A stretch of DNA of 64,000 bases. Source: an uncultured virus (IMG/VR IMGVR_UViG_3300008267_000234). Lineage: Duplodnaviria > Heunggongvirae > Uroviricota > Caudoviricetes. Position numbers and translations under genes: made by a program. The notes beneath the pieces were generated by a model. That model did not search any database, had not been told where the DNA came from, and saw only the letters and a list, made by a program, of their open reading frames with translations. How positions within the stretch are numbered: the first letter of the stretch is position 1; the number at the start of each line of letters is the position of its first letter. Below are positions 10,341 to 60,551 of the stretch, piece by piece. The stretch lies in the IMG/VR virus record IMGVR_UViG_3300008267_000234. The stretch is one strand, 5' to 3'.

Positions 10341-10579
10341 ACTTCAAAAAGCCTGCATCCAAAGTTTGCGTCCGTTTCAATGGAGTCAACGACGCCTCCA
10401 CTCCACCCGGCGCTTACGGTAATGTGAACCCCGCAATTCATCCTCGTACATACCCCATCAACCCAGCCGTCGTCCGGGTGAATACTGCGCGAGTAGTTCT
10501 CCAGTGACTCCTTTGTTTTCGACGTAGCCAGCCAGTGCTTGCAGTCCCGGCATAGGCCGAATTGCGGAGGCGGGTTCAT
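10337..10579 (-). CDS. Cys-rich hypothetical protein (80 aa)
   Basis: C..C.HW ... C ... FGC..F. Confidence 0.7.
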   Translation of the reverse strand: MNPPPQFGLCRDCKHWLATSKTKESLENYSRSIHPDDGWVDGVCTRMNCGVHITVSAGWSGGVVDSIETDANFGCRLFEV

Positions 10580-11262
10580 GCTTCCTCCTTCCAGTTGTAG
10601 ATTGGCTCTCCGTGGAAATACTTGCCGTCCACCTTATCGGATCGGACATACTTCCCAAGGAACTCCACGTTGCCTTTGCGCTCCATGCGCCAGACAGCCC
10701 CTTCGCAGAGACCGACCGCCCCGTGATGTGATGGCTCTACTGCTTCCATTGCAGCCTCAATGCTCATCGGTGGACCTTCGCTCAGAACCCTTGGCGTGAT
10801 GAACCCGCACTTCCCGGCCCTGTGTGCCACCATCTCGCACGTAATCCGCTCGGTTCCAACCATGATGTCGAATGGGACGAATGGTTCGTGCCAGAGCTTG
10901 TAGATCGTACCGTGCGCCATGTGAAGCCATTCGCCGCAGACTCGCTCGCCTGGGTTGAGGAGCGAGAAGAAGCGGTCTCGGTGCTTCATGACCCAGCGAT
11001 GGAAGACTTGGTGAGTCTCAAACTTACTGGTTTCTGCCCGGTATCCAGTACGGGTGAGAGAGACGATCTCGTCTCCGATTCGCGCAACGGCAACGCAGCT
11101 CCCGTCGAGCTTTTCTTGGACGACAACATGGTCATGCCTGTCCCTTGCCTTGATGGTAAGGAGTGCTGCTTGTTGGTCGGACAGCCCTTTGTCTGCCGGA
11201 CCTCTACGGGAACCGGGCAGGTGGGGGATTGATCCGTAGGCTTTTGTATTCAGTGGTTTCAT
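10576..11262 (-). CDS. ATP-dependent RNA ligase family protein (Rnl2-like adenylation domain)
   Basis: Motif I QEKLDGSC, GEW, FDI, EGAVWR, GKYVR. Confidence 0.85.
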   Translation of the reverse strand: MKPLNTKAYGSIPHLPGSRRGPADKGLSDQQAALLTIKARDRHDHVVVQEKLDGSCVAVARIGDEIVSLTRTGYRAETSKFETHQVFHRWVMKHRDRFFSLLNPGERVCGEWLHMAHGTIYKLWHEPFVPFDIMVGTERITCEMVAHRAGKCGFITPRVLSEGPPMSIEAAMEAVEPSHHGAVGLCEGAVWRMERKGNVEFLGKYVRSDKVDGKYFHGEPIYNWKEEA

Positions 11263-13541: not shown

Positions 13542-13617
13542 TGGTGCGCTTGACAGGACTTGAACCTGCGACTGAGGAAAAATTGAACCTCCGCTCTGAC
13601 CGCTAAGCTACAAGCGC
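13542..13617 (-). tRNA. tRNA-like gene with non-canonical anticodon arm (identity undetermined)
   Basis: Acceptor GCGCTTG/CAAGCGC, discriminator A, encoded CCA, D-stem GCTT/GAGC, T-arm GCAGG-TTCAAGT-CCTGT; anticodon arm GAGG-TTCAATTTTT-CCTC. Confidence 0.85.
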
Positions 13618-18932: not shown

Positions 18933-19526
18933 TCAGGACGGGCGGTAGAACTCGCCAAAGTGTTCGCGGGCCGCTCTGTCGTAGGCGGCAGCAGCATCCG
19001 CGATCTCTTCAAAGTATCCGAGGTGCAGCGTTTTGCCGTCGATCTGGATCTTCGCTTCCCATTTCCCGCGATTCTTGATCCGTGTAACGCCCTTGCAACC
19101 ACTAGTGTTGTTCTTGTTCTTCCCGCGATTCCTGCCGTTCTCGGTCGGGGTTGCCAACCTGAGATTGCTTGGGTTGTTGTTCAGGCTGTCGCCGTCCCGA
19201 TGATCTGTATGTAAAACGCCTGGGTCTGACCCGGTTGTCAGCGCAAGGACAATTCGGTGGCATGTGCATTCATGCGTGCCTACGCGCACCCGGTAGTATG
19301 TTTTTCCGTATCCGACATTCACGGTAGATCCGGCTTCTTTTCCTGCATACATCGCATTGAAGATGTTCCACCCGCGTTGATTCTGGAAGTGATGCCTTGG
19401 TCTGATCTTCCAGCGGAGCCATGTTTTGCTGGTCGGGTCTATCTCGAAAGCCTCGCGGATCAAATCCATTTGCAGCGGAACCGCAGTTTTCGGCAGGTGT
19501 TTTCTGGATACTTTCGACTGACTCAT
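18933..19526 (-). CDS. HNH endonuclease with C-terminal AP2 domain
   Basis: HRIV, DHRDGDSLNNNPSNLR, N..N, NTSG.KGV, W.AKI, LGYF, AA.AYD.AA. Confidence 0.92.
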   Translation of the reverse strand: MSQSKVSRKHLPKTAVPLQMDLIREAFEIDPTSKTWLRWKIRPRHHFQNQRGWNIFNAMYAGKEAGSTVNVGYGKTYYRVRVGTHECTCHRIVLALTTGSDPGVLHTDHRDGDSLNNNPSNLRLATPTENGRNRGKNKNNTSGCKGVTRIKNRGKWEAKIQIDGKTLHLGYFEEIADAAAAYDRAAREHFGEFYRPS

Positions 19527-19580
19527 GTCTGGCTGGTAGGTTGTTGCTTGTTCGGTATATTTCAATTACGGGATGGCGTA

Positions 19581-19838
19581 TTAGGATTCTCGTTCATCCT
19601 GGAACGCACCAGAAAGCCTTTCCAGCATGTTCGCAATTCGGGCATGGTCCGGGATTAAATCCGACCCATCTTCTTCTCGTAAATACGGATTAACCACACG
19701 GGTGATATTTTCCCGATAGCAGTAGGCGTGAGACAACCGGGTGGCAAGCTCTGCAATTATTGGGCCATGCTCACCGCCAACGCTTGCCTTTTCAAAGGCT
19801 GTGGCGATCAGGACTAGGAGCGACATTTCGTCGTACAT
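19581..19838 (-). CDS. Hypothetical protein (85 aa)
   Basis: ORF between RNA element copy 1 and the HNH gene. Confidence 0.6.
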   Translation of the reverse strand: MYDEMSLLVLIATAFEKASVGGEHGPIIAELATRLSHAYCYRENITRVVNPYLREEDGSDLIPDHARIANMLERLSGAFQDERES

Positions 19839-19907
19839 AATTCAGGCTTTCTAGTATCTGCCTGTGTTGTGTGGTTCAAATACGTTTCTGCGTATTCTGG
19901 AAGAGAG

Positions 19908-20290
19908 AGGTAATCCGGCAGGAAGAACCGGAGCGAAACAGCTATCGCCTCTACGGATTAGGTAAAGGAGATGAGCTGAGGAGAGATGCGATCCGTATAG
20001 GAGATCACCATCGCGTTCAGGTGCTTGCTTGGGAGGTGTCAAACTCACGGGTCCGTTGGAACTCTAAAGAAGCATCCGGCTTCTCTCCAAACAACGGTTC
20101 GCACTCGCCTCCGCAGATCCCTGCGGCGTTTTGCTGTTCACCCGTTCTCCCACACGGGTCGGCGACCTTCCCTTGGAGGAGATTTTCCGAGTGGGGCAGC
20201 AATAGCGTCTCCGGAAGATTCCTGTCCATCGCAGGTTATATGGATGATGGATGACTGGGAACTTTGTTGCACCTCTGGATCAACCCGAAT
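19908..20290 (-). ncRNA. Putative large structured ncRNA, copy 1
   Basis: Colinear similarity to 54820-55222, 20-nt identical core at 20029-20048, multiple compensatory helices; boundaries approximate. Confidence 0.75.
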
Positions 20291-20296
20291 CAATGC

Positions 20297-20428
20297 AAAA
20301 AAGAACCCCCGCCGACTAGAGACTTCGGAAGGGGTTCTTTACCGGATTAGGTCCGGTGTTGAGGGAATCTTGCCGCCAGTCTCTAGTTAGCGCAGGACTT
20401 GCTTACGGCGTGCCGCTACAATCGTCAA
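20297..20428 (-). promoter_or_regulatory. Promoter plus attenuator-type leader upstream of ncRNA copy 1
   Basis: TTGACG -35; ACTAGAGACT (20378-20387) complementary to AGTCTCTAGT (20315-20324) inside a terminator hairpin with U-tract. Confidence 0.65.
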
Positions 20429-20524
20429 GCGGATTCCTTCTGCAAATCCGCATTCGCGTATTTCCGGGATTGACAATGGCTTCCCGGAGATGCACTCTCC
20501 CTGAAACAACCCCGACCACGACCC

Positions 20525-21016
20525 ATGCTTTCCGCTCAATTTATCCCAGGGGGCAACCCCGTCGAGTTCGTCACCACCGGACCCACCAAGCTCGCCCTGC
20601 CTACGGTTGGTGCGCTGCCCGGCGTGACACAGAACAACATCGCAGCATCCACGCTGACGACTGCTGATTCCGGCAAGACGATCTTCCTAAAGCTGGCTGC
20701 CGGGTTTGCGACAACCCTTCCTCTCCCGGAAGCGGGGCTGAGCTTTGAGTTCATCGTCGGGACCGCCCCAAGTTCCGGCTCCTACACCATCGTCACCAGT
20801 GGCTCCGCAAACATCATCAAGGGGCAGGTGTATACCTCCGACTTCAGCGGCACGGTGGACTCTGATATTGAAGTTTCTGGCGGCGACACCGTCACCCTCG
20901 TCACATCAAAGTCCGTTGCTGGCGACCGCGTCGAACTCCGGTGCGACGGAACCAGTTGGTTCGTGTACGGCTTCTGCTCCGTCTTCGACGCCATTACTAT
21001 TACGCAGGCTTCCTAA
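20525..21016 (+). CDS. Virion structural/decoration-like protein (163 aa)
   Basis: LT.ADSG..I...TLP...GL.FEF...GD.VEL.CDGT.W beta-rich module; TTGACA at 20470; own terminator. Confidence 0.6.
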   Translation: MLSAQFIPGGNPVEFVTTGPTKLALPTVGALPGVTQNNIAASTLTTADSGKTIFLKLAAGFATTLPLPEAGLSFEFIVGTAPSSGSYTIVTSGSANIIKGQVYTSDFSGTVDSDIEVSGGDTVTLVTSKSVAGDRVELRCDGTSWFVYGFCSVFDAITITQAS

Positions 21017-21084: not shown

Positions 21085-22932
21085 ATGCCAGTTCCGATCA
21101 TTCAGAGAAAAGGAGGGCTTTCTCCGAAGCCTCCGCAGTTTGACTACGATTCTTGGGGAGAAGACGAAAACGGGAACATCTACCATGAACTCTACGGGGA
21201 ATGGTGGGACGGCAAGATCGGGTACTCTCGACTGGATATTGAGCTGTCGGCGTACATCCGGGGGCTGAAACCGGAGGATGGGGGCGCAGGGAAATATCAG
21301 CACCTGCGGGAATGCGTTGATCTTCTCTGGAACTCAGACGGAAGGAGCATTGTGGAGTGGAATCCCTGGCTGGAGAAGATGCTGGAGGAGTCGTGCGAAC
21401 ACAACTTCCTTGCAGTCGCCGGATGTTCCTCGTCGTCCAAGTCGTTCGGGGGAGCCATCATCGCCATCGTCAACTTCATTGCGGACCCGGAGAATACCCT
21501 GGTCCTCGTCACCTCAACCTCCATCGGCGCGGCCAAGAAGCGGATCTGGAAGTCCGTCATCCAGCTTTGGAACAAGCTGCCGGAGAAATACCAGAAGCTC
21601 GGGAAGATCAAGCCCAGCTTGAATATGATCCACTACCAGCCGCAGGATGGATCAACGGCACACGACGCCGCCTCAATCACGCTGGTTGCCGCTGAGCAGA
21701 AGCAGGAAGCCTCCGCCGTCCAGAAGCTCGTCGGGTTGAAGAACGAGCGGGTGATCCTGATTGCGGACGAGCTTTGCGAACTCTCACCTGCCGTCCTCCA
21801 GGCATCCGACAACCTGATCTCAAACCCGTGGTTCCAGATGATTGCGATGAGCAATCCAAAGGACCGGGAGGATTCATTCGGTCTGATGTGCGAGCCCGTC
21901 GATGGTTGGTCTTCCTTGGACGAGTCAATGATGGAGTGGGACACGAAGTACGGGAAAGCCATCCGCTTCGACGTTCTTCAGTCTCCAAACTATCTGGAGC
22001 AGGAATGTATTTATAAATACATGCTGACCTACGAGAAGATCGAAAGGTTCCGCAACCAGCATGGGGAAAACTCAGCCCGGTTCTACCGCTTCTACCGAGG
22101 ATTCTTCCCTGTTCAGGGTGCCGAGGATACGATTTATACGGACACGGACTTCAACGCCTTCATGGCAGAGAAGATCAAATGGAAGGGTGAGCCAACGAAG
22201 GTTGCCGGACTGGACTTGTCCTTCTCCTCGGGTGGTGACAAAACCAGTCTGTGTATCTGTCTGTTCGGTGAAAGCGTGGACGGATTAACGTGCCTCCAGT
22301 TTGAGAAGTTCTACCAGATCCACGAGAACGCCGCCGACAAGCTGAACCCGCGAACGGATCAGATTTGTACCGAGGTGAAGAAGATCCTAGACCAAGAAGG
22401 CGTCGGGTATGCGAACGTGGCTGTCGATAATACTGGCGGCGCAGGCACGGTTGATCGACTGACTCAGTTCATGTCTAGGGATCTCATGCGAATCAACTTT
22501 GGCGGCAAGGCTACGGATCGCCCGGTATCTTCCAACGACAGAACTCCGTCGCACAAAAAGTACAAGAATCGCGTTTCCGAACTATGGGGTGTCGGAATTG
22601 AATACTTCCGTGGCGGGCAGCTTGCCGGATTCCGCAAAGACCATGATCTCTGCACCGAGATGAAAGCTCGCCGCTACAACATGGTGAAGGGCGCAGACGG
22701 TGAACGAATGGAGGTTGAGCCAAAGCCGAAGATGAAGCTCCGCATCGGTCGTTCACCCGATAAAGCTGACTCGCTTATGCTTTGCATTGAAGTCTGCCGC
22801 GAGAGATTCCACTGGCGATCCAAAGAACGCGGGCTGGCAGTGTTGCCTAAAAAGGATTTCTATGATGTAATGCGGAAGCTGGATGTGGTGAGTAGATCGA
22901 ATGGCGGTGGCGATTGGATGGCTATTGCTTGA
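21085..22932 (+). CDS. terL: Terminase large subunit
   Basis: Variant Walker A AGCSSSSKS, Walker B ILIADE, motif III MSNP, RNase H-like GLD..GGD, AVD, RSPDKADSL. Confidence 0.9.
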   Translation: MPVPIIQRKGGLSPKPPQFDYDSWGEDENGNIYHELYGEWWDGKIGYSRLDIELSAYIRGLKPEDGGAGKYQHLRECVDLLWNSDGRSIVEWNPWLEKMLEESCEHNFLAVAGCSSSSKSFGGAIIAIVNFIADPENTLVLVTSTSIGAAKKRIWKSVIQLWNKLPEKYQKLGKIKPSLNMIHYQPQDGSTAHDAASITLVAAEQKQEASAVQKLVGLKNERVILIADELCELSPAVLQASDNLISNPWFQMIAMSNPKDREDSFGLMCEPVDGWSSLDESMMEWDTKYGKAIRFDVLQSPNYLEQECIYKYMLTYEKIERFRNQHGENSARFYRFYRGFFPVQGAEDTIYTDTDFNAFMAEKIKWKGEPTKVAGLDLSFSSGGDKTSLCICLFGESVDGLTCLQFEKFYQIHENAADKLNPRTDQICTEVKKILDQEGVGYANVAVDNTGGAGTVDRLTQFMSRDLMRINFGGKATDRPVSSNDRTPSHKKYKNRVSELWGVGIEYFRGGQLAGFRKDHDLCTEMKARRYNMVKGADGERMEVEPKPKMKLRIGRSPDKADSLMLCIEVCRERFHWRSKERGLAVLPKKDFYDVMRKLDVVSRSNGGGDWMAIA

Positions 22933-39333: not shown

Positions 39334-42300
39334 ATGGAGACCCCTACTTCTACTGGCACCGTCACTCAGCCAGCACCACTCAAACCCTGGAAGCAGGTAG
39401 CCGAAGAATCCAACATCTTCTCGCTGCCGCCGGAGCAACGGATTGCCGAGTACGATAAATGGTCCGCAGAGAATGTTGCCCAAGGAATTAAGGACGGGGA
39501 CTTCGATTCACGGGGCACGTTCGACCAGTTCAAGTTATTCGACATCCGCACCCGGAAAAACCTTGCGTCCGACGACATTGTTGGCGCTTCAGACGAAGAG
39601 GTGTTTGCGGATTACGAGGCATTCAAAGGCGCATTCGCCAGCACGCAGGCTGCATTCTCTGCCAACAAGCCAACCCCGCAGGACGAAGCTATCCAAGGCG
39701 AGGTGCTGCAAGGTAAACGTAAGTCCGCCTTCCTGCGCGGGCAGATGTTCTTCAACCCTGCCGTCGTCAACGATCCACAGAAGTACCGGGAAGCCATCTT
39801 GGAATCCGATGCGCCTGCCGACATTAAGATGTTCTACGCAGGACTGCGGCCTGAGATGGAGAAGTCCGCAACCGTCACCCGCCGCCGCGAGCTGGCGAAC
39901 AACGTCATCACTCGCGATGTAGCGGACAAGGTCGTCACTGCAATCCAAGAAGGAACAGAACTCTTCGGTGCTGACATTGGCACTCCGCAGTCCCCGGCGT
40001 TGAAGAAGAACAAGGACGGAATCTGGAGCGTGGTTGATCCAGAATACTCCGACAAGGAAACGTCGTTCCTCGGAAGGGCGAATGCCAAGTACAACCCACT
40101 GGCTGATTCTCTCTACAAGCCATTCGCCGCAATCAACGAGTACCAGCAGAAGTACGGACTAACGGACGAGCAAGTGCAGCAGGACTACATGGAGTCGCTG
40201 ATTGAGAATGCGCCAACATCCGTCAACCGCTGGTTTGGAAAGGCGACGAGCATCGAAGAATACGTCAAGCAGTTGGATTCCACCGTCCGAGTAAAGAACA
40301 AGGACGTTGCACCGGAAGTTCGCGTGCAAGATCCGAATTTGTTCTTTGACGCAGAGGGGTACAACGCTGCCGTCGATAAAGCGAAAGCGCCGGACGAAGC
40401 GAAGACCTTTGCCAAGGAAGCCCGCACGCAGTTTGCTGATGCCGTTGCCGGGGACATCTACAACAACCTCCTCAATAACCGGGACGACTTCCGCGAGGGA
40501 TACGCGAAGGATGTTGTGGACCGGAAGGACATGGAGAAGGCGATCACTCGGTACTACAAGGACAAGAAAGATCAGGCGTGGTACGACGACGTTGGTGAGA
40601 CGATTGGGCAGGCTGGCACTGCGCTCAAGCAAGGCGGGATGGACTTGATGATGATGCCGAGCGCAATTAAGGGGATGTTCGGTGACGTGGAAGCGGCAGA
40701 GAATTACAGGTACTACACGCTCGCCCAGAAAGGGGAAATGCAAGCCGAGGAGGCTGTCGCCAATCGGACTGGTGGCGCTGGCTTCATTAAGCTGAACAAT
40801 GATGTGATGCGGATCATCCCGGATCTCGTTGTCCAGATGGTGATTGCGGTGGCTACTGGCGGAATGCTATCCGGCGCTCAGGCATCATTGATTGCTGCCC
40901 GCACAGGGATCTCTAGGGCGGCTGCGACAACTGCGCTTCGTCAGGCAGCGATCACCGGAGAGAAGACGGCGCTGAAATCCCAGCTACTGAGGCTTATCCC
41001 GGAAGTCACCGCTAAGACTGTCGATGACGTAGCCGAGGAAGTCCTAAAGGCATCTGCGCGGACGGTGTCGAACAACCCATTCAAGGGCGGCATTGGAACT
41101 CAGCGTGCTGTCGGCTCAGCCTACGCGGGGCTCAGCTCCGCATCCGCAACATTCGGGCAGGTCTACACGGATGTCCGCAACATGGGCAAGTCGCCGGAAG
41201 AATCCATCGCAACGGCGCGGACGGCAGGTATCGTCGCAGGCGCAATCACCAGCGGACTCACGCATTCATTCGGGATGCTTGGTCGTGGTGGTGTTGAAGA
41301 CTTTGCTTCCATGGGGCGCAAGGCTGGGGAGTTCACCATCAAGGACATCGTCAACGCGGGAATGCTTGATTCACTGAAGACGCCAGAGGGGCGACAACTC
41401 ATCCGCAACATCGCCAAGGGAATCTCCAAGGATGCTCTGAGCGAAGGTGCGGAAGAAGGATTGGATCAGGCTCTCAATCTGATCTCGCAGTACGCTACGA
41501 ACCCATCGCCGGAAGCACAGAACCGGAAGGCGACGGACATCATCAACGAGTCCTTGTATGCCAGCTTGCTCGGAGGCATTGCTGGTAGTGGCGCTGCTTC
41601 CGTTGGACAGGCTCGCGCATCCGCTCCCGGCATTACGGCTCAGCAGATACAGGCTGAGATCCTCGGGGCGCAACAACCACCTGTCGCTGGCGTGCCTCCG
41701 GTGCAGCCGCAACAACCACCAGTTCAAGCGCCCCCTGTCGTTCCTGTTGCCCCTGTCGTCCCATCCGCGAACCCTGCGGTCCAGAACGCCCAAGCTGTGG
41801 CGAATGCTGCGGCGGCTATCCCAAATACAAGCCAAACCGCTGCGGCTCTCGCGGCTTTTGCGAATGCGGCAGCGTTTCCGATGCCAGAGAAGAATCTGCC
41901 TGAGATTGAGACCCCTAAGCCTGCGCCGGAACCAGAAGTTCAGCCAGCGGAAGAACCTGTTGCCGTCCAGCCTGAGCCCGCCACGCCAGAAGTAGCACCC
42001 GCAAACGCGGAGAAAACTCCAATTGAGCCCACTCCAACGCCTGCGAAAGTAGAGCCAGAACCTACTGAGAATATGAAGACGGAAGAAAAGCCACTTACCG
42101 ATGATGCCGCAGAAGCTATGCGCGACATTATTCAGATGAAAAAGTCGAAAGGCGAGAAGCCGAACGACGCCATGGTATCCAAGCTGGCGGAATACGACGC
42201 CAAGAAGTCCGGCGTTACGGTTGAGCAGGGCGACATCGTTTCAAATATCGTTGTCGGGCATCCAATGTTTGAGCCCCCGCATCCAGAATTGAAAAACCTT

Positions 42301-45300
42301 ATTCCAATCAAGATCAGAAATAAAGGCGATGCTTCCGGCTCTGTTGATCGCGCCCTAAAGGTAAAAGAGAAAGCCCTAAAGTATATCGGCGGCTATCAAT
42401 ACAATCAATCAAAGGCAAAAACGCCAGCACAGAAGAAGCAGTTTGCGAAGGATTTCAATCAACAGGAACTCAATCGTCAAGAAGAGATCCTTGGCTATCT
42501 GAACAACGATGTATTCCCGGAGCTAAAACGCATTGAAGAGGCTGCTCCAGAAGCAAAGCCAGAAGTCGCCCGCGATACGACGAAGACGGAGCAGATGACG
42601 CCGGAAAAAGGAGACGAGGTCTTCGTAAAAGGCGGGGATGAAAGAATCACTCGTCGCATTGACAATATCTTTACCGCAGAAGGAAAGCAGATGGTTTTGC
42701 TGCAAGGGCTTCGCGACCCGATGCCGCTGGATGAAGTTACGGTTGATCCAAAATCCGACTACCGCAAACGGAAGCAAAAAAAAGCCGAACAAAAACCACA
42801 GACGGTTGACGCAAGTCCTCAGCTAATCAGACAGCTTGGCGACTTTGCTGTGCGAGATAGACAACCTATCAACCAAGAGTATATTAACGCAAGTGGAGGA
42901 GTCGTCCCCGAAGGCTACGTCAAGCAGGGCGAGCTGTACGTTTATCAGCCAGAGCAGAAGGCGGAAGCGGTAGTGGAGGCAAGGGTTGAGCCTGCCAAAC
43001 CAGCACCTCAAACCCAATCCTCGCAAAAACTACCAAAGGAACTCGCCGGAGCGAAGCCGCGCTACGGATACGCAAACATCAATACGGAGCTTTCGTTTGC
43101 ATCCGACTTCGACAAAGCCGCTTACATTGTAGCTCAAGAGAAGAAAAATCGTCGCCATGACGATTATATGAAGTGGGCTGTTCAGTCGTCTGGACTTACC
43201 GAGGAGCAAGTCAGAGCGCATGGAACGATTGTCCGAGAATCAATCAAGGCATCCATCAAGCCTTACGCCCAGAACAAGCGCCCAGTTCCGGCGCTGTTTC
43301 CGGTTGCCGCCACTCCGGTAAACCCAAGCGCACAAGCCGTCAAGCCAACCGTAAAGCCAGCGCAAAGGACTCCGGTTCAAGCCGTCATTTCAAAGGCGAT
43401 CACGGAAACGCTTCCTCTCGATCTCACCAAAGCGAAGCCAAGGTATGCGTTCAAGGATAAGAATTTCATCGTATCCTTTGTTTCTGACTTTGATAAAGCT
43501 GCATATATCGTATCGCAGCCAGAGGACAAGCAAAACAAGCAGCATGCAAAGTACCTCGCGTGGGCAACAAGCGCATCCGGGTTGACGGCAGAACAAGTTC
43601 AAGCACACGGCAGTTATGTCCGCCAGTCAATCAAGACGATTGCTCAAAACGCAGAAGGCGGAACACCTTCCGCGCCAAAGTCGATTACGATTGGAAAGCA
43701 GTATACGAAAACCAAACCCGCAGTTGAGTCAAAGCCCACTCAAGGGACAACACCGGAAAAACAACCAGCGCAACCAAGCAAGAAAAAGATTCTGTTCCGT
43801 GGGTTTGGGCGCAAGGAGAAGGGGTCTGTGTATTCTGACCGAGCAGACGGTCCTGTTCTTGGCGGCGGAAAGTATTACGCCTTCAATGAAGAAGAGGCAT
43901 CTCGATACGGCCCGGAAGTTGAACAGGTTGAGTTTGACGCAAGTAATGCGCTCGTCATCAGCAGTGATAAAGAATGGAGCGATCTCACAAAAAAACTTGG
44001 CTGGAGATTTCCAAATCCAAGCGGCAGAAGTCCAGAGACGGCAAAGCAAGAAATCAAGACCCTGACCAACTACTTAAAAGCAAAGGGCTACACCGCCATC
44101 GTGGTTGATGGCATTAAGGGATCGGTTGGGGATAACGCAAAACTACTAAAGAACGTATTCGGAACTGACCAGGTATTTATTCCGGAAGGGTTTCCTGAAA
44201 CGCCAACTCAAGTAAAGCCGGAGCAAAAAGCAGCCGGACAAGAAGGAGAAGTAAAGGCTGAAGCGCCAGCCAAGGGAACATCTAAACCAAAAGGAATCCA
44301 AGGATCTGCGTTTGAATCCTCAATGCCAAAAGGCAAGGAGCGTGTCACCGGACAGTATGTGGTTATTGAAGCTGGCGATCTCGTTACAAGTTTTGATCCC
44401 GGATTCCCAAAAGAACTTCAGCCTCGCGATAGAACTCGCGCCGCAAGCAAAGAACAGATTTCCGAAATCGCCATCAATCTTGCCCCGGAAAGACTGGGGG
44501 ATTCCCCGACAGTTGATGTTGGTGCGCCAAACATTGACGATAACGGGGCAGTCCTTTCCGGCAATGGTCGCGTTACCGCAATCAGGGCGAATTACGAAAG
44601 CGGCGGGGTTGACTACAAGAATTGGATTACCCAGAACGCGGAACGCTTTGGGTTTAATGCGGCAGACATTGCTGCGATGAAGAATCCGGTTCTTGTTCGC
44701 AGGATTTCAGATTACGGGAAATTGTCTAAGGAGGAATTCGCCGTCCAAGCAAATCAATCGCAGGTATTGTCGATGAGTAAAGGAGAGAAGGCGAAAGCCG
44801 ACGCCTCAATCCTGCTGGCGAATACCGATCTGTTTTCTAAATTCAGACCAAGTGAGGATGGTAACGTGCTTGTTTCTACGAACCGTGAATTTATTGCCGG
44901 GTTTGTACAAGAGACTGGCGCAATGGATCTTCTTGCCGCCGATGGCAGTTGGACCCCGGATCTTGGTGTCCGCATCCAGAATGCAGTTCTCGCCACGATG
45001 CTTGATGGTGATGCAGTCATTATTCAAAACCTCATCGAAGACCCATCCGGCTACGGGCTGAAGAAGGTGTCTTCGGCGCTTTTGCTGAATGCTCCAAACC
45101 TAATAAAACTGTTTGGAACTGATTGGAGTATAAACCAACCACTGGCGCAAGCGATCAAGGATTTCATCTCCGTAAAAAACGCGGGACAAAAAGTCGAAGA
45201 GTTCCTTGACCAGAGCATGCTCTTTGCTGACCCAGAAAGAACAGCCGTCAGTGACATTCTGTTAACGAAACTCTTCAATGCAAAAAGCCAGAAAGAGCTG

Positions 45301-48300
45301 AATGACTTCCTTTCTAGCTATGTTGCAAGGGCTGAAAATTCAGTTGAAGATCAGCGTTCCGGCGGTCTTTTTGGTGGGCAACCCAGAACCGTACAGCAAA
45401 TTGTAACCGATCTTACATCCAATGAAAAACAACCAGCAGAACAACAGCAAGATCTCTCGTTTGGAAAACCTCAAGCAGTTCCAGCAAAACAAACAAACAC
45501 CAAAGGACAAAAGGCTAAAACTGCTACTTCAACTCCAGAAGTAAAGGCTGAGGCACCGGACAAGCAGGGCGATGTTGTCGCCTTCATCAAACAAGAGAAC
45601 GACAAGCAGAAAAAATCTCAGGCTTCAGCAGCGAGGAGTAAGCGCATCACCCCAGGCGAAGCCCGCAAGAAAGGCATCGCAATACAGATTGATCGCCTTG
45701 GCATCACCTCCAAAGATCCAGCGTCAGTCATTGCTGCGCTAGAGAAGATCGCAGCCAAGCCGAGCGAGAAGCACCATGGTCGCATCGCCAAGGATCTCCT
45801 CAGCGTACTGGAAGGCTCCGGCGTGCAGATCCAGCTTGTCTCCGGCAACGACGCAAGGATGGCGAAGTACGACTCCCGCGTGAACGGCTGGTACGATCCA
45901 GCGACAAACACGGCATACATCAACCTCGACGGGCCGCACGAACTCGGGATTGAGGAAACTATCCTCCACGAACTCGTCCACGCTTCCGGCGAGAAGGTCA
46001 TCCAGAATCCACAGACGGAAGCGCAGAAGCGTATCCTTGCCGACCTAGAGAAGCAGATGCTTGCCGCTCGCAAGAACGCCATCGCTCTCGGGAAGGCGAA
46101 GATGGGCGTCGATGTATCCGATCTCAAGATACTGATCGACATGGCGGCAGCGCAGAACGACTACGGATTGTTCGACATCCTCTACGGCGTGTCCAGCCTT
46201 TCCGAATACCACGCGCACGCTACGACCAGTCGTTCATTCCAGAAGTTCCTCGCCACCTACAAGGAAGGCGGAAAGCGGTCGCTGATGGAGCGGTTCATCA
46301 ACAGCATCACAAGCCTGCTGTCTGGCAAGAAGACGGCAGACGGATCGGATGCAGAGAAGGCATACGCCACGCTGCTTGACCTGATGCGCGAAGGCAAAGG
46401 GGATGTCCGGCTGTCGAACGCGGATGTCGTGCAGTCTCGGGCGAGGGGTGCATCCACAGAGCAGGATGCTGAATACCTTGAGCTTGCGAAGGATGAAGAG
46501 AAGAACGCAGAGGCTTTGCAGGCCATAGTGGATGCGGCGGCGAAGGCGGCGGGCGGGCAACTTGTGTTCCATGGAGGAGACATCGAAGGCGATGTGATTG
46601 ACGTTAATCGCAGAGAGCGGGGCGCGGAATCGGAACGTAGAGCCGGGACGTTCTATGCGTCGAGCAATCCAGACGCAGCTAAGACGTACCCAGGTAAGCA
46701 GCAGAGACTATTCTTCTTCCTGCGAAATCCATTCCGCATAGGGACTCCAGAGATGAGACCCGCTTCATGGACTGGCGATACGGCGGTTCGTGCTGGCGGC
46801 AAAGTTATCAGCAAGAAGACCAGCCTCTCTATTGGCGAGGCAGTTGATCGCGCCAAGCAGTTCGGGTACGACGGAGTTATTTACGACAACATAGTTGATA
46901 CAGGAAGACTCCCCAGTCAATCAGGCAAACCTCCGATTGGCTCTACTTATGTTGCGTTTAACTCGGAACAAATCAAGTCCGCCGACCCCGTTACCCGCGA
47001 CGACGCAGGCAACGTCATCCCTCTTTCGCAACGCTTCCAGCCAACATCCCCAGACATCCGGTTTTCGCGGGCGCGTGGAACTGCTTCGGACGAGGACGCA
47101 CGGCATGCCGCACTGGAGGCGCGAGCAAAAGACGGGGACGCTGAGGCGACGGCGGAGGCGCAGGCGATAGTGAATGAGGCGGCAGATGATGCGGCGTACA
47201 AGAGGTCTGGATACCACGGCACCCGTGCTTCGTGGACAGTTTGGGATAGCGACATCGCCGGGGGGCTTATAAACATAGGCGAATCAAAAGAAGTGGCAGA
47301 AAGATACGCCACTGGCGCTGGCGGCGGAAGGCAACCACTCAACATTACTGAAGTGGAGTATTACGACGGGCGTAAATTCACTCAACAAAGTTATACGGAA
47401 TGGACAAGCGGGAGCGAGTCGCTATCGACTGAGCAAATCCAGAAAGACGTAGACGACGGGGATGCCGTGCCGACTATTCCGGGCGCATCCGTAAAGAGCC
47501 TCAGATTCAAGGCGGACAAAATCCTTGACCTGACAACACCTGAAGGAATCAAAGTGTTGGCTGGTCTTAACTATACCACCCGTCTTGGGCAGGGGGTTGT
47601 TTCTGATGCAAAAGCCGGGAAGTTCTACTGGGATCGCACAAAGAATGAATACGCATTAAAGACTTGGAAAAATGAACTGATTCCGCAACTCAAGGAATTA
47701 GGATATGATTCCGTCAGGTTTAAGGACGACACACATAATACGATTGCCGTCTTCTCCCCCGAGCAAATCAAATCAGCCGACCCGTTCACCTACGACGAAG
47801 CCGGAAACCTCATCCCGCTCAGTCAGAGGTTCCAACCCGAATCTCCCGACATCCGTTTCTCCCGCGCCCGCAGCATCGTCTCCGACACAGTCACCAAGTT
47901 CGCGCCGGAGTTCAATGTGGTGGACGACAAGGACGGTCCTGCTGTGTTCTTCGACGGGCGCAACGTCACCGTCAATCCAGATGCCCTAGAGAACTTAGAC
48001 GAGTACGAGGTGAAGGACTTGTCCGAGCGGGCGGTCGTCGCCGCAAAAGCTGCGCCAAAAGATCCGATTGCCGCGTCCATCATTCAGCAAACGGACGGGT
48101 ATAGTGCGTACAACTTCGACTCAGCCACCCGCAAAGAGATCCGCAAGTCGCTGGCAAAGGCTCACGCTGTTGCGACCGAGAACGGCATGGCTCCGCTGGC
48201 GATGGATCTTGGCGCAAAGCTCTTTGAGTACGGTGGCGCTACGGATGCGGATGTAAGGAAGTCGATGGCGCGTGGAATTCCTTCGGACGAGGAATACCTT

Positions 48301-51300
48301 GCGACTGTCGAGGCTGGCGATATGGAGAAGGCGCAGCAGATGGTGAATGATTTTATCGGTGAGCCAAATAGCGGAATGACTCGCCTATGGAGATCGGACG
48401 CAGCAAAGGTTGGGACTCCAGTTCCAAACTGGATGGAATCAACAGAGGAGCTTCAAGGAATCAAAGACGCATCCGGTAGGTGGTTCTACAAGACAAAGGA
48501 GGAAGCGGAGCGTCACATGGCGGACTTTGAAGGCGAGTCGCTTTCGTTCGTTGACGTTCCATCTGAATCCGTCGAATCATTCAACGCAAAGGATAATCCG
48601 TTTGCTGGCGGATACGGAAAGCAGGGTTTTGAATACTTCGTCCCTAGGCAAATCGCGGAGGCGAGAGTATCTACGGCTCCAGTGGTTCGCGACGACGCAG
48701 GCAACGTCATCCCGCTCAGCGAGAGATTCCCTGGAGCCGCAATGCCTCAATCCCGCGCACGCGGAGTGGACCTAGTCGCCTATGTTCCTCGTAATCGCTC
48801 AGGCCCTCGTCTCGCCGTAGAGAAGCTCTTCGCCGGATTCCGCAGCCGAGGAATGGTGACGGAAGATGCGTACAATGCATTCAGGGATTTCGAGGCATTC
48901 AAGAAAGAGACTGAGAGCTTCATCGCCTTCATCGCAAAGGACTTCACCAATGTGACGAACAAGCTGTTTGGCGACGGGGCGGACAACTGGTTGAACTATC
49001 GTGTCTTCTCTCGGGATGCGAATGGCAATGTCACCGTCAGTAAGACTGGGTTCAAGACAGCAAAGGATGCAGACAACTTCGCTGCGACCAACAGGTACAA
49101 GGACTACATCGTCTCCACTGGGGAGGAGTTGATGAACAAAGCCCTCGGCAGCAACGGACCTACGCTTCGCGAGGATGTCCGCGACAGGATTGACCAACTG
49201 ACCAAGAAGGGGTTGGACGACATCGCCAAGTCCATCGAAGCCTACAAGGATGAGTATCTGAACTACTGGAATCTCGTCATGATGCAGCCGCAGCCTGGGA
49301 TGATTGATCCAGACCAGATTGCCACCTTGCGTGAACGTAAGGAGCAGTGGATGAAGGCTCTCCAGCTCCGCGCCGCAGAGCAGAGGCAGCTTGTGGACGA
49401 CGCCCGCAAGGAAGCCGTTCGTGTGGCATTGGAAGATGGTGCCAATCATATCATCGCCCAGCAGAAGTTTGCCAAGACGTATCTACCAGACGAGTTGGTC
49501 TACCAGATTGAGCGGACTCGCGATAAGATCGATGAGTTCTCCACGCGGCTCACAAAGATCGGTTGGCTGATGGAAGGAAGCGAACTCCAGATGGTCATTG
49601 ACGGTCGCATGGGTGTCTATGTCACTCGCTCCTATGAGGCGTTTGAGACTCAAGACCGAGCCAACTACGTCGCGTTCTTGGACGAAGCGTATCGCGCTCT
49701 CTACAACCCAGAGCAGGAATACAATAAGCTGGCAATGGAACGGATCATGCCTATGGTCCGACACATCAAGGCTGGGATTACTGAGCGCCGGATTCAGGAT
49801 CTGAAGAGGGAGAATGAGCAGCGCCAGTTGGACGAAATCATGGCGGACCTGATGGCAGATCCACGCCAAGTCACCCAGGTTGATCGAATCCCAGGGCAAC
49901 CAATCGAAGGGACCGAATACGAGCAACTGCTTCGCGCCGTTGCAAGACGGGAGCTTCTGCTTCGTCGATTGAAAGAGAAGGAGGATTTCATTGCCAAGGC
50001 TGTTACCTCTCTTGGGAAAAGCACGTTTGCCAGCAACATCGGCAATGCGCGAAATCGCATGCGTGCAATCAAGAAGGAAGCCAAGCGTCTCTACAGGGAA
50101 CGGTTTGCGGAACAGGTCGAGGTAGCCAATATCATGGGCGCTCCAAACGCTCTCCGGTGGACATTGATGACCGAGGACGAAGCCCACGACATTGCAAACG
50201 TGGAGCGTTCGCTTTCTGAAAGCCCCGGTAACATTGCCGGATCAAAGATCTGGACTGCAAGCATCAGCGGCAGAAAGCACTCGACATTCCATTCGGCAGT
50301 AAGTGATGATTTCAGATCTAATCTAGATACCATCACCAATTCCACGGCATCGCAAACCGGATTCAAGGGAACAGGGGCGGGTGACTGGAGGTCGATCAAT
50401 GACAAGATCCTTGAGTACAAGGAAAACGTGCCAGCATTCCGGCGCTTGTTCTTGGGGGAAATAAACAACCCATTGATGCGGGTTTCCGAAACGCTTACAA
50501 AACAAGCCAGCCTGATTGCTGCCGGAGAGCTGTACCAAAATCTTGCTGACATTGGAATGAAGCAAGGGTGGCTTGTTGAAAAAGAACTAGCCGACACAGA
50601 CACAACGAAATACGCAGGATGGACTTCGATCCTCACATCCAGCGACAACGATCAAGGATACAAAGACAATCCACTCAAGGATCTTGTTGCCGACCCGGTA
50701 ATGGTCGAGGCAATTAGAAAGCTACTGTCTACAAACCAGCCATCAAACAGCGCATTCAAAGCCATATCGTTTACCGTCGGATTGGTTTTGTTTAACCTGA
50801 CCGCAGGTAGCTTTAAGTCCATTCAGCGGAACCTCTCGTCGTTCATTCCGTTCCTTCTCAACACTGGACTTATTGGAGCGATGATCAATCCGCGCAGATG
50901 GTCCGTCGTTACGAGTAATTTCGTTCTTGCGTCCAAGATGGTCGAGCAGTCCATGGCATCTTCCGCTGGCGTCTCCAGTGGAAAAGACATCAGCAATCCA
51001 ATACTCAAGCGTCTCGACAAGGGAGTCAGGATCTTCCTCTCTGGGATTGCCGCTCTTCGCCTGTCTGGATTGGCTGTGAAAGGTGTATCCACTTCCGCTG
51101 GCTTTGTGTTTAGAACCAAGCAAAAGCCAACCAATGAGCAGTTCCAAGAAACGTATCAGCGTGCTGTCGGTCTCGGTGTCGCCAACGACAATGTCGATAA
51201 GGAGGCAATGAGCAAGATGCTCAATCTTGAGGAGACCTTGAACCGCAAACCGAAAGACAAGAAGCTCGGTAAACTTGGGAAGGTGTTGATGCTTAACGAA

Positions 51301-53798: not shown

Positions 53799-54229
53799 GT
53801 GAACCACAAATCATAAACCCCACCACCGAGACATCATCTACGGCAAGTCATCGCGATGAACCACTACGGATGTTCCATTCCCCATACGGGCATTCGGACG
53901 AGGAGAACTTCGTCTTCTTCTTCAATCGCCTTCAAGCCAAAGCGCACGTAAACGCCGTCGCCAAGGGTTTCTGGGAAACTGAGCGTTCCGATGGAGAGTC
54001 CATTGCGCTGATGCACTCAGAACTCTCTGAGGCACTGGAAGCCTTACGCCACGGCAATCCTCCAGACGACAAGGTTCCCCAGCACTCAGGGGCAGCAGCA
54101 GAGCTTGGCGATACCATCATCCGTATCATGGACCTCGCCGGGAAACGCGGCTGGAACGTGGCGCAGGCGATGATCGACAAGATGGAATTCAACGCCCAGC
54201 GGGCATACAAACACGGGAAGGAATTTTGA
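53795..54229 (+). CDS. MazG-like nucleotide pyrophosphohydrolase
   Basis: IALMHSELSEALEA...ELGDTIIRI.D...KM..N..R.YKHGK. Confidence 0.85.
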   Translation: MSEPQIINPTTETSSTASHRDEPLRMFHSPYGHSDEENFVFFFNRLQAKAHVNAVAKGFWETERSDGESIALMHSELSEALEALRHGNPPDDKVPQHSGAAAELGDTIIRIMDLAGKRGWNVAQAMIDKMEFNAQRAYKHGKEF

Positions 54230-54231
54230 TT

Positions 54232-54744
54232 ATGACCATCCAATACCCCATCACTCCCGGCGAGGACTCCGTCGCCATGGCGCTCGTCACCGCAGCCATC
54301 CAAGCTGCCGCTCAGTACGTCTCGGTCAGGCACCAGATCCCGATCAACAATGTCCTGGCTGGCATGAGCGTGTCCGCAAACCTGCTGCCGCCCATCAACA
54401 TGGCGCTCCAGTCATTTCAGGAGAAGCAGTTGGCTCAACAGATCGCTGCCGCTACGCCTGCTCCAGCACCTCCTCCGCAGCCGCCAAGTCCTCCGAGGCA
54501 GGCACCGAAACCGCAGCCCGTGGTTGTGCCTCAGCAGATCGTGGAGCCACCACCACCGAACTCTCCGGCCTACGCGATCTACGCAGCCAGAGCTTTGTCG
54601 CAAGACCGTCCGGCACCGATCCCATCTGCGCTTGTGGATCTCCCAAAAGTTGAGCCTGTGCCTGTTGCGGAAGCGCCACTGAAGGTACTGCCGGAAGTTC
54701 CGCTCAAAAAAAAGCCCGGTCGTCCGAAGAAAGTCACTGAGTAA
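54232..54744 (+). CDS. Pro-rich protein with C-terminal AT-hook-like KPGRPKK
   Basis: Low-complexity ORF, last of plus-strand block. Confidence 0.65.
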   Translation: MTIQYPITPGEDSVAMALVTAAIQAAAQYVSVRHQIPINNVLAGMSVSANLLPPINMALQSFQEKQLAQQIAAATPAPAPPPQPPSPPRQAPKPQPVVVPQQIVEPPPPNSPAYAIYAARALSQDRPAPIPSALVDLPKVEPVPVAEAPLKVLPEVPLKKKPGRPKKVTE

Positions 54745-54768
54745 TTCTCCTCCACCAACCCGACCAGA

Positions 54769-54804
54769 GGAAGCCTGTTGATTTAGTTCAGCAGGCTTTC
54801 TTTT
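54769..54804. terminator. Terminator at convergence of the two transcription blocks
   Basis: AAGCCTGTTGA...TCAGCAGGCTTTCTTTT. Confidence 0.75.
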
Positions 54805-54819
54805 GCGTATATAGTACAA

Positions 54820-55222
54820 CAGGAATCCAGAAGCGAGGAGCCAGAGCAGACAGAACATCGCCCCTGCCTATCGGCATTGGGATGATGTACTGGTACAAGC
54901 AGAGATCCAAGAAGGAGTCACCGTCGCTTTCGCAGGTGCTGAATTGGGAGGTGTCAAACTCACAGACTTGCGGGAACACTCGGCAATCTATCATTGCCTC
55001 CAAACCGCAATACGCACATCGTCCTTGGCTTTCAGGCCAATGTTTTGGGATTCGTCTGTTCCATCACTCCAGAGGGCGAGTTCTGGCGGAATGGATTCGG
55101 AGAGTGCTGGACCGTTACCGTGTCCTCCGGGTTCCCGTCTGGCTCGGGTTCTATTGCTGCCAGATGACTAAAGACTCTGGGGTGCCTTGTTCCCGCCACG
55201 CGTTTGACGGTATCAACAGAAA
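54820..55222 (-). ncRNA. Putative large structured ncRNA, copy 2
   Basis: Homologous to 19908-20290; identical core at 54944-54963; covarying helices; GAAA tetraloop on minus strand. Confidence 0.75.
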
Positions 55223-55223
55223 C

Positions 55224-55342
55224 AAAAAAGCCCCAACGACTCGCCTTCGTTGAGGATTTTCTGGTGGAGTGATCCACTTAATAAATTGCGACGATGGCGA
55301 GTCGGTCTTCCGAAGACTTAGCCAGCCGCCCATTGTTTGCAA
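55224..55342 (-). promoter_or_regulatory. Promoter plus attenuator-type leader upstream of ncRNA copy 2
   Basis: TTGCAA -35; CGACTCGCC (55296-55304) complementary to GGCGAGTCG (55237-55245) within a terminator hairpin with U-tract. Confidence 0.65.
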
Positions 55343-59068: not shown

Positions 59069-59970
59069 TAGATTGATTTCTTGAAGCCTCCCCGTTTCTG
59101 CTGCTCATCGCGGCGTTTCGCCTCAGCCAAGTTGTCCAGCTCAGAAATCACCCGGTTCCAGTGCAGACAGAGGAACGTAGGATCGCAAGCCTGCTTCGAC
59201 AGCGAGGCAAACTGGAGCGTACTGGCACCGAGGACTTCGTCGTAGATCCGCAGGAAATCTTCGGCAGAGGCATCGCAGTTCTGAAGGAATTTCTCCAAGG
59301 CTTTCGGGAATCTTGGAGGAAACATGAACGCATCCGACTTCCGACCATTCCAGACTCCTTTGATCTGGCTGGTGATTTCGTGATGCCGTTGATCCTGCTC
59401 CTTGGCTGGCTTGGATTTCTTGCTGGATTTTTCTGGCTGGGATTCAAGTTCCATATCGGTATCTAGTTCGTTGTTGGCTGGTTCGTTCAGTCGAGACTCA
59501 AAAGCAATCTCCGCGAGTGCGGCGTGAGCCGGAGGCGAAAGAGCAATCGTGTGCATTGGTTCTTTTTCTGGTTCTTTTCTGATTCCTTCTGATTTGGGTG
59601 TCAATTTGGGGGAGACCCCCCTGTCTATTTGTACCAGGGGGGGTGGTACAATCTGACAGGGGGGAGTGGTACAATTTGGGGGAGGGTCCAATTCGTCACC
59701 ACCAGATCCAAGCGGAGTTTTTGGGTGCAATCGGTACATCGGAGTAGTCCCTGGGCGGGCAATCTGGGTGATGTGTCCAGCCCTTTTTAGCTCCCGAATC
59801 GCACGCCTCACGGCACGCTCCTCCAAGCAGGTTTCGGCACACAGGACCGCAACTGATGGATCGCATCTACCTGTCGTTTCGTTCAGGTGATCCGCCAGCA
59901 TCAAGCCAACGAACTTCGCGGAGGATGGAGCTTCGATGAGCTTGAATCGCTGCATCATCTGGATGCTCAC
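59068..59970 (-). CDS. Phage replication initiator (N-terminal winged HTH)
   Basis: LADH....G.CDPS...L..ETCL.ER.VRRA..EL...G; directly upstream of helicase. Confidence 0.8.
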   Translation of the reverse strand: MSIQMMQRFKLIEAPSSAKFVGLMLADHLNETTGRCDPSVAVLCAETCLEERAVRRAIRELKRAGHITQIARPGTTPMYRLHPKTPLGSGGDELDPPPNCTTPPCQIVPPPLVQIDRGVSPKLTPKSEGIRKEPEKEPMHTIALSPPAHAALAEIAFESRLNEPANNELDTDMELESQPEKSSKKSKPAKEQDQRHHEITSQIKGVWNGRKSDAFMFPPRFPKALEKFLQNCDASAEDFLRIYDEVLGASTLQFASLSKQACDPTFLCLHWNRVISELDNLAEAKRRDEQQKRGGFKKSI

Positions 59971-60539
59971 GTAGCTTGGCCCTCTCTGTAAAATCCACCA
60001 AACGCCTCTTTTGCTGCCTGTTCGTATGTCCTAGACGCCAATTCAACATCATCAAAATACCCAAGAGCAAACTTCCTGCCGTTTATTGTAATTTGAGCGC
60101 ACCATTTCCCAACTTGCTTTGCATAAAAAACGCCTTTCCTTCCGCTCGTATTATTGCTCGGTTTTCCTCGGTTCCTTTGATTATCAGTATGCGTTGCAAG
60201 CCTAAGATTCTCAGGCCGATTATTCAACCCATTATTATCAATATGATCTACTTCAAACCCAATAGGATCAATCCCGGTTGATAAAAAATACACAATACGG
60301 TGATTCCTATACATGCGACCGTTTATCATAAGTATGAAATACTTATCGGTTTCATTGTTTTCCTTTAGGCATCCAGCCTCCTTAGTTGAGAAATTTCCAT
60401 TAAATATCTTCTGTCCGCGTTTGTTTTTGAAATGATGCTCTGGTCTTGCCTTCCAGCGCAGCCCGGTGCTGCTGGTTAAGTCGATTTCCAAAGATTCTAG
60501 GATCAAATCAACCGGAAGCGGAGTTGCTTTCTTGCTCAT
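59967..60539 (-). CDS. HNH endonuclease with AP2 domain
   Basis: HRIV, VDHIDNNGLNNRPENLR, NTSG.KGV, LGYF; AT-richer than neighbours; start ATG 60539. Confidence 0.92.
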   Translation of the reverse strand: MSKKATPLPVDLILESLEIDLTSSTGLRWKARPEHHFKNKRGQKIFNGNFSTKEAGCLKENNETDKYFILMINGRMYRNHRIVYFLSTGIDPIGFEVDHIDNNGLNNRPENLRLATHTDNQRNRGKPSNNTSGRKGVFYAKQVGKWCAQITINGRKFALGYFDDVELASRTYEQAAKEAFGGFYREGQAT

Positions 60540-60551
60540 GGTTCTGGCAAA

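Follow-up and report, generated by a model that had tools for sequence, protein, structure and literature searches.

The stretch of DNA analysed here (64,000 nt, hereafter the window) represents most of a phage genome of ~70 kb, and the matching DNA runs are labelled as freshwater or lake metagenomes. A plus-strand virion and packaging module is bordered on both sides by minus-strand genes, which include DnaB, a replication initiator, ThyX, an RNA ligase, a methyltransferase and HNH_3+AP2 endonucleases. The genes relevant to the present analysis were located as follows.

10576-11262, minus strand: RNA ligase (Pfam RNA_ligase)
13542-13617, minus strand: tRNA-Leu(CAA), called by ARAGORN, with an Rfam match at 13545-13617
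18933-19565, minus strand: HNH_3 + AP2 homing-type endonuclease of 210 aa (Pfam), downstream of RNA copy 1
19581-19838: ORF of 85 aa between RNA copy 1 and the HNH gene, an unrelated insertion in the window
20525-54744, plus strand: virion and packaging module, with a small-terminase candidate, TerL and a portal candidate
21085-22932, plus strand: TerL
39334-52782, plus strand: polyvalent protein of 4482 aa (ddrB-ParB and ART-PolyVal) at the module end, presumably injected with the DNA
59967-60704, 60884-61486 and 63277-63948, all minus strand: further HNH-type endonuclease genes

The RNA ligase and the tRNA-Leu(CAA) share one minus-strand region, a hint of roles in the repair or supply of tRNA. 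An identity of the 4482-aa protein as an N4-type virion RNA polymerase was considered and dropped, its sole Pfam matches being ddrB-ParB and ART-PolyVal. Two of the four HNH genes of the window are HNH_3+AP2 (Pfam) and two are weaker PHROG-99 matches; one of the four lies between replication genes and ThyX.

Two non-coding stretches on the minus strand adjoin the virion module, copy 1 diverging from its start and copy 2 converging on its end.

19877-20297, minus strand: copy 1 RNA body (~420 nt, set by helix coordinates and covariation), with, in order, the 5' hairpin H0, H1 with PK1, H2, H3/H3b and the H4 domain (H5, H6, H7), then the single-stranded core, PK2, PK3 and the 3' hairpin
54815-55222, minus strand: copy 2 RNA body, paralogue of copy 1, set by alignment and by a match to covariance model R1 (see below)
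20029-20048, minus strand: shared 20-mer in copy 1, an unpaired core between H4 and PK3
54944-54963, minus strand: shared 20-mer in copy 2, an exact match to that of copy 1

The two stretches align colinearly, both on the minus strand, with 58.8% identity (223 of 379 aligned positions of the RNA body). The 20-mer GTGAGTTTGACACCTCCCAA has two exact occurrences in the window, both on the minus strand, against a chance expectation of 0.01 matches, and no site complementary to the 20-mer or the core was found elsewhere in the window. The colinear, diverged pair with a common 20-mer described in the first-pass annotation was thereby reproduced. Its placement of the locus was right, and the unit proved longer than it had proposed, with a 5' hairpin from 20297, a 3' hairpin to 19879 and a leader upstream. 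The two stretches are predicted to be paralogous minus-strand genes, of ~400–420 nt, for an undescribed phage non-coding RNA.

For comparative analysis, relatives were collected by way of TerL, which gave 16 loci in IMG/VR at 85–100% amino-acid identity (main group 87%). Blastn matches to copy 1 were obtained at 13 of 17 loci (67–79% identity, on the strand opposite to TerL and ~800 nt upstream of it); the remaining 4 of the 17 TerL loci hold too little upstream DNA for comparison. In related contigs of IMG/VR and of metagenomes, copy 1 orthologues are found upstream of the terminase genes, and one lineage, L055, came from a degenerate core-pattern scan of metagenomes. The resulting 10 distinct full-length sequences represent ~5 deep lineages: copy 1, copy 2, the L005-L011 group, L010/13/15 and L055. 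The lineages are mosaic: L055 is almost copy 1 in its 3' half, L010 equals the L005 group in its 5' stretch, and breakpoints fall inside the RNA gene.

Wider searches added little. The exact 20-mer was present at one locus in viral contigs, belonging to the same phage, and blastn against GenBank phages gave zero matches. Degenerate core patterns returned 12 loci in viral contigs, none beyond the contigs already known, 33 loci in metagenomes, where only L053 (= L008) and L055 were real by nhmmer, and 30 loci in bacterial and archaeal genomes, none of them real (best E 0.095). A 15-base scan with the promoter block returned 85 loci, the real ones being known contigs and one truncated locus only. 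The 80 distant TerL relatives (37–69% identity), searched with nhmmer and R1, contained no further central-domain member; L070 and L072 (TerL 68–69% identical) alone gave a match, confined to the 5' end.

L072 1760-2175, minus strand: diverged homologue of the RNA, also in L070

At this equivalent site a ~400-nt unit lies between two terminators. Its 5' end, H1 and 3' block are common to the family and its middle is different and hairpin-rich. In the L072 unit two 9-bp pairings also exclude each other, CGCCAGCAG/CUGCUGGCG and a local hairpin.

The arrangement in which two copies flank the virion module, as noted at first pass, holds for the window and was seen in this phage only: G006, the complete genome behind L072 (72,271 bp), has a single cassette, and a search of it for a second found none. 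A search for copy 2 orthologues with the neighbouring 172-aa protein gave no relatives, and as the contigs of the relatives also end before the equivalent site, copy 2 is known only from the window. The RNA family is narrow, with about a dozen contigs from one freshwater phage clade.

The predicted fold of copy 1 comprises the following elements, all on the minus strand.

20251-20246 with 20230-20225, minus strand: helix H1 (TCCATC/GATGGA), covarying
20235-20232 with 20224-20221, minus strand: PK1, CCUG in the H1 loop with CAGG, covarying
20185-20216, minus strand: H2 (UUCCGG/UCGGAA), with 4 stem sequences among the lineages and a conserved closing G-U
20146-20182, minus strand: hairpin H3/H3b, whose loop GUCGCC takes part in PK2
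20166-20161 with 19949-19944, minus strand: PK2, GUCGCC with GGCGAU, spanning ~210 nt
20047-20145, minus strand: central domain closed by H4, enclosing H5, H6 and H7
20126-20111, minus strand: H5
20097-20092 with 20058-20053, minus strand: H6
20084-20068, minus strand: H7
20104-20101 with 20024-20021, minus strand: PK3, GUGC with GCAC, crossing H4

Covariation was evaluated on two alignments. A plain, structure-blind MAFFT alignment of the 10 sequences was used for H1, PK1, H2, H3/H3b, PK2, H4 and a possible long-range AGUCA/UGAU contact. Across its 43 pairs 97.9% of the cells were canonical and 26 pairs were altered on both sides. Partners slid out of register were 36–44% paired, and 0 of 500 shuffles equalled the observed value, a statistic that overstates independence because the sequences form only ~5 deep lineages that are related and recombinant. 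In H2, 4 of 6 pairs were altered on both sides with 100% pairing, and H3/H3b with PK2 shows a U-A to C-G change that divides the sequences 4 versus 6.

The central domain was treated with model R1, a covariance model of 155 nt built from copy 1 and L055, which recovered all 10 family members at E<=7e-19 (next best match E 0.12); it matched copy 1 at 20002-20156 with 206 bits and copy 2 at 54915-55070 with E 3e-24. The model-fitted alignment (8 distinct sequences) was used for H4, H5, H6, H6b, H7 and PK3. Of its 31 pairs 24 were altered on both sides and 98.8% of the cells were canonical (slid controls 38–45%), figures to be read with the lean of such an alignment towards structure in mind, although the sequences are near-equal in length and almost gap-free. 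For four helices of the domain the count was 22 of 24 pairs altered on both sides, and PK3 reads ACGC/GCGU in L010. Copy 1 compared with copy 2 alone had 63 of 68 modelled pairs canonical in both; 35 of these 63 were the same, 27 changed on both sides and 1 changed on one side. A contig from an RNA library combines 20097 G>A with 20053 C>T, a compensating change that turns an H6 C-G pair into U-A.

Weaker support was obtained for H0 together with a CCCAC/GUGGG contact (94.9% paired, 4 of 10 pairs altered on both sides), a contact that competes with part of H3. The unpaired conserved stretches are AGUCAU, AAAAC, GUUUGGA, the 20-mer and GCGAYGGUGA. On the 3' side of GGUGA the sequence varies and is rich in pyrimidines, with only the PK2 3' strand and the terminal hairpin conserved in it. 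Minimum free energy z-scores (-2.5 and -0.5) were unremarkable and are not counted as evidence.

Most pairings listed in the first-pass annotation were recovered as covarying, namely TCCATC/GATGGA (H1), CCTG/CAGG (PK1), ACGGGT/ACCCGT (H4), CCGCAG/CTGCGG (H5), CCGTTG/CAACGG (H6), AGAAGC/GCTTCT (H7), GTGC/GCAC (PK3) and TCGCC/GGCGA (PK2). Its CCGGAG/CTCYGG pair had to be given up, the 5' half belonging to the strongly covarying H2 and the pairing being absent from L010 and L055, and the GAAA tetraloop is not conserved, the hairpin loops of H5 and H7 varying freely. The bases of GGAG/CTCC are invariant or ambiguous among the sequences. The core that it had called invariant is so in the two paralogues and in L055 only; in the 20-mer, 4–5 positions differ in L010 and in the L005 group. 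Taken together, the covariation supports a fold of at least 8 covarying helices and 3 pseudoknots, of which PK1 is local, PK2 spans ~210 nt and PK3 reaches across the central domain.

Strand was assessed from the G-U cells (26 + 14 = 40 on the minus strand), each of which would turn into A-C in an RNA read from the plus strand; they favour the minus strand, as had been proposed. Pairing was 97.9% and 98.8% on the minus strand versus 92.1% and 93.4% in a plus-strand reading. Two plus-strand frames cover the copies.

19871-20254, plus strand: ORF of 127 aa over copy 1
54882-55253, plus strand: ORF of 123 aa over copy 2

Their proteins are alike across the shared 20-mer only, and the L005 group has no stop-free stretch beyond 43–78 codons in any frame, with no frame kept open across the orthologues. 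The protein-coding test found neither a conserved open frame in the orthologues nor, outside the 20-mer, protein-level likeness between the copies. A functional structured RNA encoded on the minus strand is very probable.

To place the RNA among known families, Rfam 15 was used (4227 models, including GOLLD, ROOL, OLE, raiA, HEARO, group I and II introns, RNase P, tmRNA and 6S). At the gathering threshold the window gave a tRNA only. In 1-kb slices at E<=10, 4 and 3 matches were returned, all at noise level (the top one scored 18.7 bits where 43 is the threshold), and the minus strand of the RNA body held none of them; the loci of L072, L005, L010 and L055 gave 0 matches at E<=1. ARAGORN, run on the window as a test for tmRNA and tRNA-like RNAs, called tRNA-Leu(CAA) only. 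The statement that RNase P, tmRNA and group I/II hallmarks are missing is in keeping with these results, and the Rfam check proposed with it gave no match in the window or the relatives. A full-text literature search found no description of the RNA. One catalogue (PMC10690425) lists 10,006 viral candidate RNAs with motifs of 29–151 nt; its tables held no match to the sequence or contig terms, and its alignment archives could still list a sub-motif. A preprint (10.64898/2026.09.22.753630) describes an unrelated RNA array. The first-pass claim of a large minus-strand non-coding RNA with several pseudoknots, absent from Rfam, is upheld, with covariation on both the MAFFT and the model-fitted alignments. 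The novelty is at the level of the RNA family, with no match in Rfam 15 or the literature searched, and is not claimed as a new mechanism.

Each RNA body is preceded by a leader of ~100 nt, with a GC-rich hairpin and a U-run immediately 5' of the body. The upstream units and the terminators were arranged as follows.

20297-20428, minus strand: copy 1 upstream unit, with promoter-like block, leader and terminator
20428-20423 and 20405-20400, minus strand: promoter-like TTGACG and TAAGCA of copy 1, 17 nt apart, assigned on conservation
20387-20378 with 20324-20315, minus strand: loop A of the copy 1 leader pairing with terminator loop A'
20337-20303, minus strand: copy 1 terminator stem, with the U-run at 20302-20297
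55224-55342, minus strand: copy 2 upstream unit, with promoter-like block, leader and terminator
55342-55337 and 55320-55315, minus strand: promoter-like TTGCAA and TAAGTC of copy 2, 16 nt apart
55304-55296 with 55245-55237, minus strand: loop A of the copy 2 leader pairing with terminator loop A'
55255-55231, minus strand: copy 2 terminator followed by a U-run, called by a terminator scan
54715-54806, unstranded: back-to-back terminators 3' of copy 2, of which the plus-strand hairpin and T-run end the virion module
54728-54715, minus strand: terminator ~90 nt past copy 2, within the end of the putative plus-strand ORF 54226-54744

A consensus sigma-70 scan called no promoter upstream of either copy, and we therefore infer the promoters from conservation. 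Leaders were also seen in L005, L008, L009, L010, L011, L055 and L072. In the leaders, A, the loop of the first hairpin, is complementary to the terminator loop A', with a Watson-Crick match of 8–10 nt in 8 of 9 leaders and in six sequence versions. The match is 10 nt in copy 1, a length reached by 1 of 1000 shuffles, and 9 nt in copy 2 (4 of 1000); across the leaders 1–40 per 1000 shuffles reach the observed length, and that of L055 (6 nt) is not significant. The A/A' loop-loop contact may set the read-through of the terminator. With an intrinsic terminator directly before each body, most transcripts might stop ahead of it. H0, which covaries, starts right at the U-run and leaves no space for a separate promoter of the body, which is therefore most likely made by read-through of the leader terminator. 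The leader A/A' element (20297-20393 and 55224-55314, minus strand) may also be an independent regulatory element or a small RNA by itself.

Further upstream, between the RNA unit and terS, a non-coding block (20400-20530) is highly conserved among the relatives. Contigs from RNA libraries with the labels horse, soil, marine and freshwater carry the block at 95–99% likeness, an odd range of habitats for a freshwater phage; the spread may reflect a regulatory module in common use, or else carry-over from reagents or from one sample to another.

Contig pieces 95–99% alike to the locus were present in four RNA libraries and cover parts of 19890-20259 and 20392-20600 (pieces 19890-20016, 19980-20184, 20012-20184, 20175-20259 and 20392/20418-20600). 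They run into unlike sequence, again indicating mosaic relatives. Neither strand nor ends nor level can be read from such contigs, and a 15.8-kb phage contig in one run makes DNA carry-over possible; they are only a hint of transcription. The parts of the locus that the pieces leave bare, and the unexpected habitats, are not counted as evidence.

The genes 3' of the RNA body vary among the relatives. In most of them (L055, L010/13/15, L008, L011, L009/14 and L005) the start of an HNH-AP2 gene coincides with the 3' hairpin or lies a few bases from it, with no Shine-Dalgarno sequence visible at the HNH start beside the hairpin. The identity of the relatives' HNH genes to 18933-19565 is 90%, 86% or 50% depending on the relative (L055 90%), and relatives carry tandem HNH pairs downstream of the RNA; L006 has no HNH gene within 1.6 kb downstream. 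Homing endonuclease genes are mobile and often borrow the transcription of a neighbour. In the window, a UUG after the 3' hairpin of copy 1 opens a frame of ~21 codons (19815-19880, minus strand), which looks like a remnant left by the insertion of the 85-aa ORF, as the HNH genes of relatives start at the equivalent place. A putative 148-aa ORF without a family match (54412-54858, minus strand) starts within the 3' region of the copy 2 RNA. No partner protein for the RNA was evident among the window ORFs by Pfam and PHROGs.

The reading that we favour, at a probability of roughly 0.6, is that of a leader-controlled, stand-alone, trans-acting RNA beside which the HNH gene is a passenger. Transcription would start at the conserved promoter-like site upstream of the leader, and the A/A' loop-loop contact would decide the share of transcription that passes the terminator into the body. 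The body would act in trans as a stable folded RNA that offers its unpaired core to a protein or nucleic-acid partner, as a scaffold or catalytic RNA and probably not as the regulator of one downstream gene. Copy 2 lies between its minus-strand terminator (55255-55231) and the back-to-back terminators, beyond which comes the convergent end of the virion module, and the L072 homologue lies between two terminators with convergent genes beyond. Both being boxed by terminators with no downstream gene, they favour a stand-alone, trans-acting RNA. The HNH-AP2 gene would be a selfish passenger, a role suggested by HNH mobility together with breakpoints inside the RNA gene; its cutting, followed by repair, would drive local gene conversion in the RNA gene, which would account for the mosaicism and, plausibly, for the second copy too.

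A cis-acting 5' leader, controlling HNH translation or read-through into the minus-strand operon in the manner of a large put analogue, is rather unlikely. It would account for the start of the HNH gene at the 3' hairpin in at least 6 lineages of relatives, for the missing Shine-Dalgarno sequence there, for the minus-strand genes after copy 1, for the terminator-containing leader and for two copies per genome, as with putL/putR. However, copy 2 and the L072 homologue, followed by terminators and convergent genes, have nothing to regulate, L006 lacks a downstream HNH gene, and in the window the unrelated 85-aa ORF separates the RNA from the HNH gene. A length of ~400 nt with three pseudoknots, moreover, far exceeds the needs of known leaders of this type.

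That the RNA is instead the partner of the adjacent HNH-AP2 protein in a ribonucleoprotein, or forms one mobile element with the endonuclease gene, appears improbable. RNA and HNH gene neighbour each other, with one orientation, in the window and in 6 more sequence versions from relatives, exchange breakpoints lie inside the RNA gene, and HEARO RNA beside an HNH-domain ORF provides a precedent. Against this, HNH genes are missing beside copy 2 and in L072 and L006, the protein has a DNA-binding domain of its own, and it has window paralogues without the RNA, e.g. 59967-60704. The RNA also has no variable guide-like segment, the complement of its core is absent from the window, and the HEARO model of Rfam does not match it. 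A more specific version, in which the RNA directs, licenses or shields HNH-AP2 cleavage and the copies without an HNH gene serve as decoys or immunity RNAs, is a long shot; if true, a stand-alone homing endonuclease that works with an RNA of its own would add a new type of homing system or RNA-dependent nuclease.

That the RNA belongs, in degenerate or strongly diverged form, to a known class (group I intron, lariat-capping ribozyme, RNase P RNA, GOLLD or ROOL) is very unlikely. Size, pseudoknots, phage setting and nearness to homing endonuclease genes are similar, but no Rfam model rose above noise even at E<=10, the relatives included at their own cut-off, the RNA interrupts no gene, and its pseudoknot order differs from that of group I P3-P7. 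Last, a DNA-level site (recombination, packaging or origin) or a plus-strand protein is largely refuted: an exact 20-bp core in diverged direct repeats flanking the virion module, the terminase genes adjoining copy 1 and the 127- and 123-aa frames might suggest one or the other, but compensating changes preserve single-strand pairing and the 40 G-U cells would mismatch on the opposite strand, orthologues differ in the 20-mer, the complete relative has a single copy, and the ORFs are neither conserved in orthologues nor alike as proteins.

To our knowledge, large RNAs with several pseudoknots are rare, and the known ones are ribozymes, ribonucleoprotein cores or self-assembling cages. The covariation is unusually clean for so few sequences, the compact size suits cryo-EM or crystallography, and two natural variants in one genome allow comparison. 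The leader loop-loop contact on a terminator may be a new way to set read-through, and the link to a homing endonuclease offers a testable account of a mosaic RNA gene whose fold is kept.

Among known systems, phi29 pRNA is a phage non-coding RNA beside the packaging genes that engages in loop-loop pairing, in small protein-primed phages. The present RNA likewise lies next to packaging genes and shows predicted loop-loop pairing, but it has no sequence or structure likeness to pRNA, would be transcribed away from terS and TerL, and has its copy 2 far off. The put elements are ~70 nt long with two stem-loops; HK022 putL and putR resemble the present pair as two paralogous RNA elements per phage, downstream of a promoter (a putative one here) and near terminators. 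They act on the polymerase that makes them (PMC9378689). The present RNA differs in its length of ~400 nt, in following rather than preceding a terminator, and in that copy 2 has nothing downstream to express.

HEARO is the RNA of IscB and adjoins an HNH-domain ORF. The likeness lies in a structured RNA beside an HNH-domain gene in mobile, mosaic DNA; unlike HEARO, the present RNA has no Rfam match and no guide-like variable end, copy 2 and L072 lack an HNH gene, and the neighbouring protein is a 210-aa HNH_3+AP2 without RuvC by Pfam. Pfam and PHROGs scans of window ORFs gave no match to an IscB, TnpB or Cas family. Group I introns and the GIR1 lariat-capping ribozyme are similar in being pseudoknotted RNAs of a few hundred nt linked to a phage homing endonuclease gene. 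The present RNA, in contrast, is intergenic, has no exon-like flanks and no Rfam hit; in the group I intron test no split ORF flanked either copy, both being intergenic and each following a terminator. Its predicted pseudoknot order (H4 5' strand, H5, PK3 5' strand, H6 domain, H4 3' strand, PK3 3' strand) differs from the P3-P7 order of group I introns.

GOLLD and ROOL are large ornate RNAs, in many cases carried by phages. These RNAs are reported to self-assemble (PMC12286853). The present RNA is set apart from them by having no cmscan match, a smaller size (~420 nt), a very narrow spread and no multimer contacts in evidence, but like them it is large, pseudoknot-rich, phage-borne and found by covariation.
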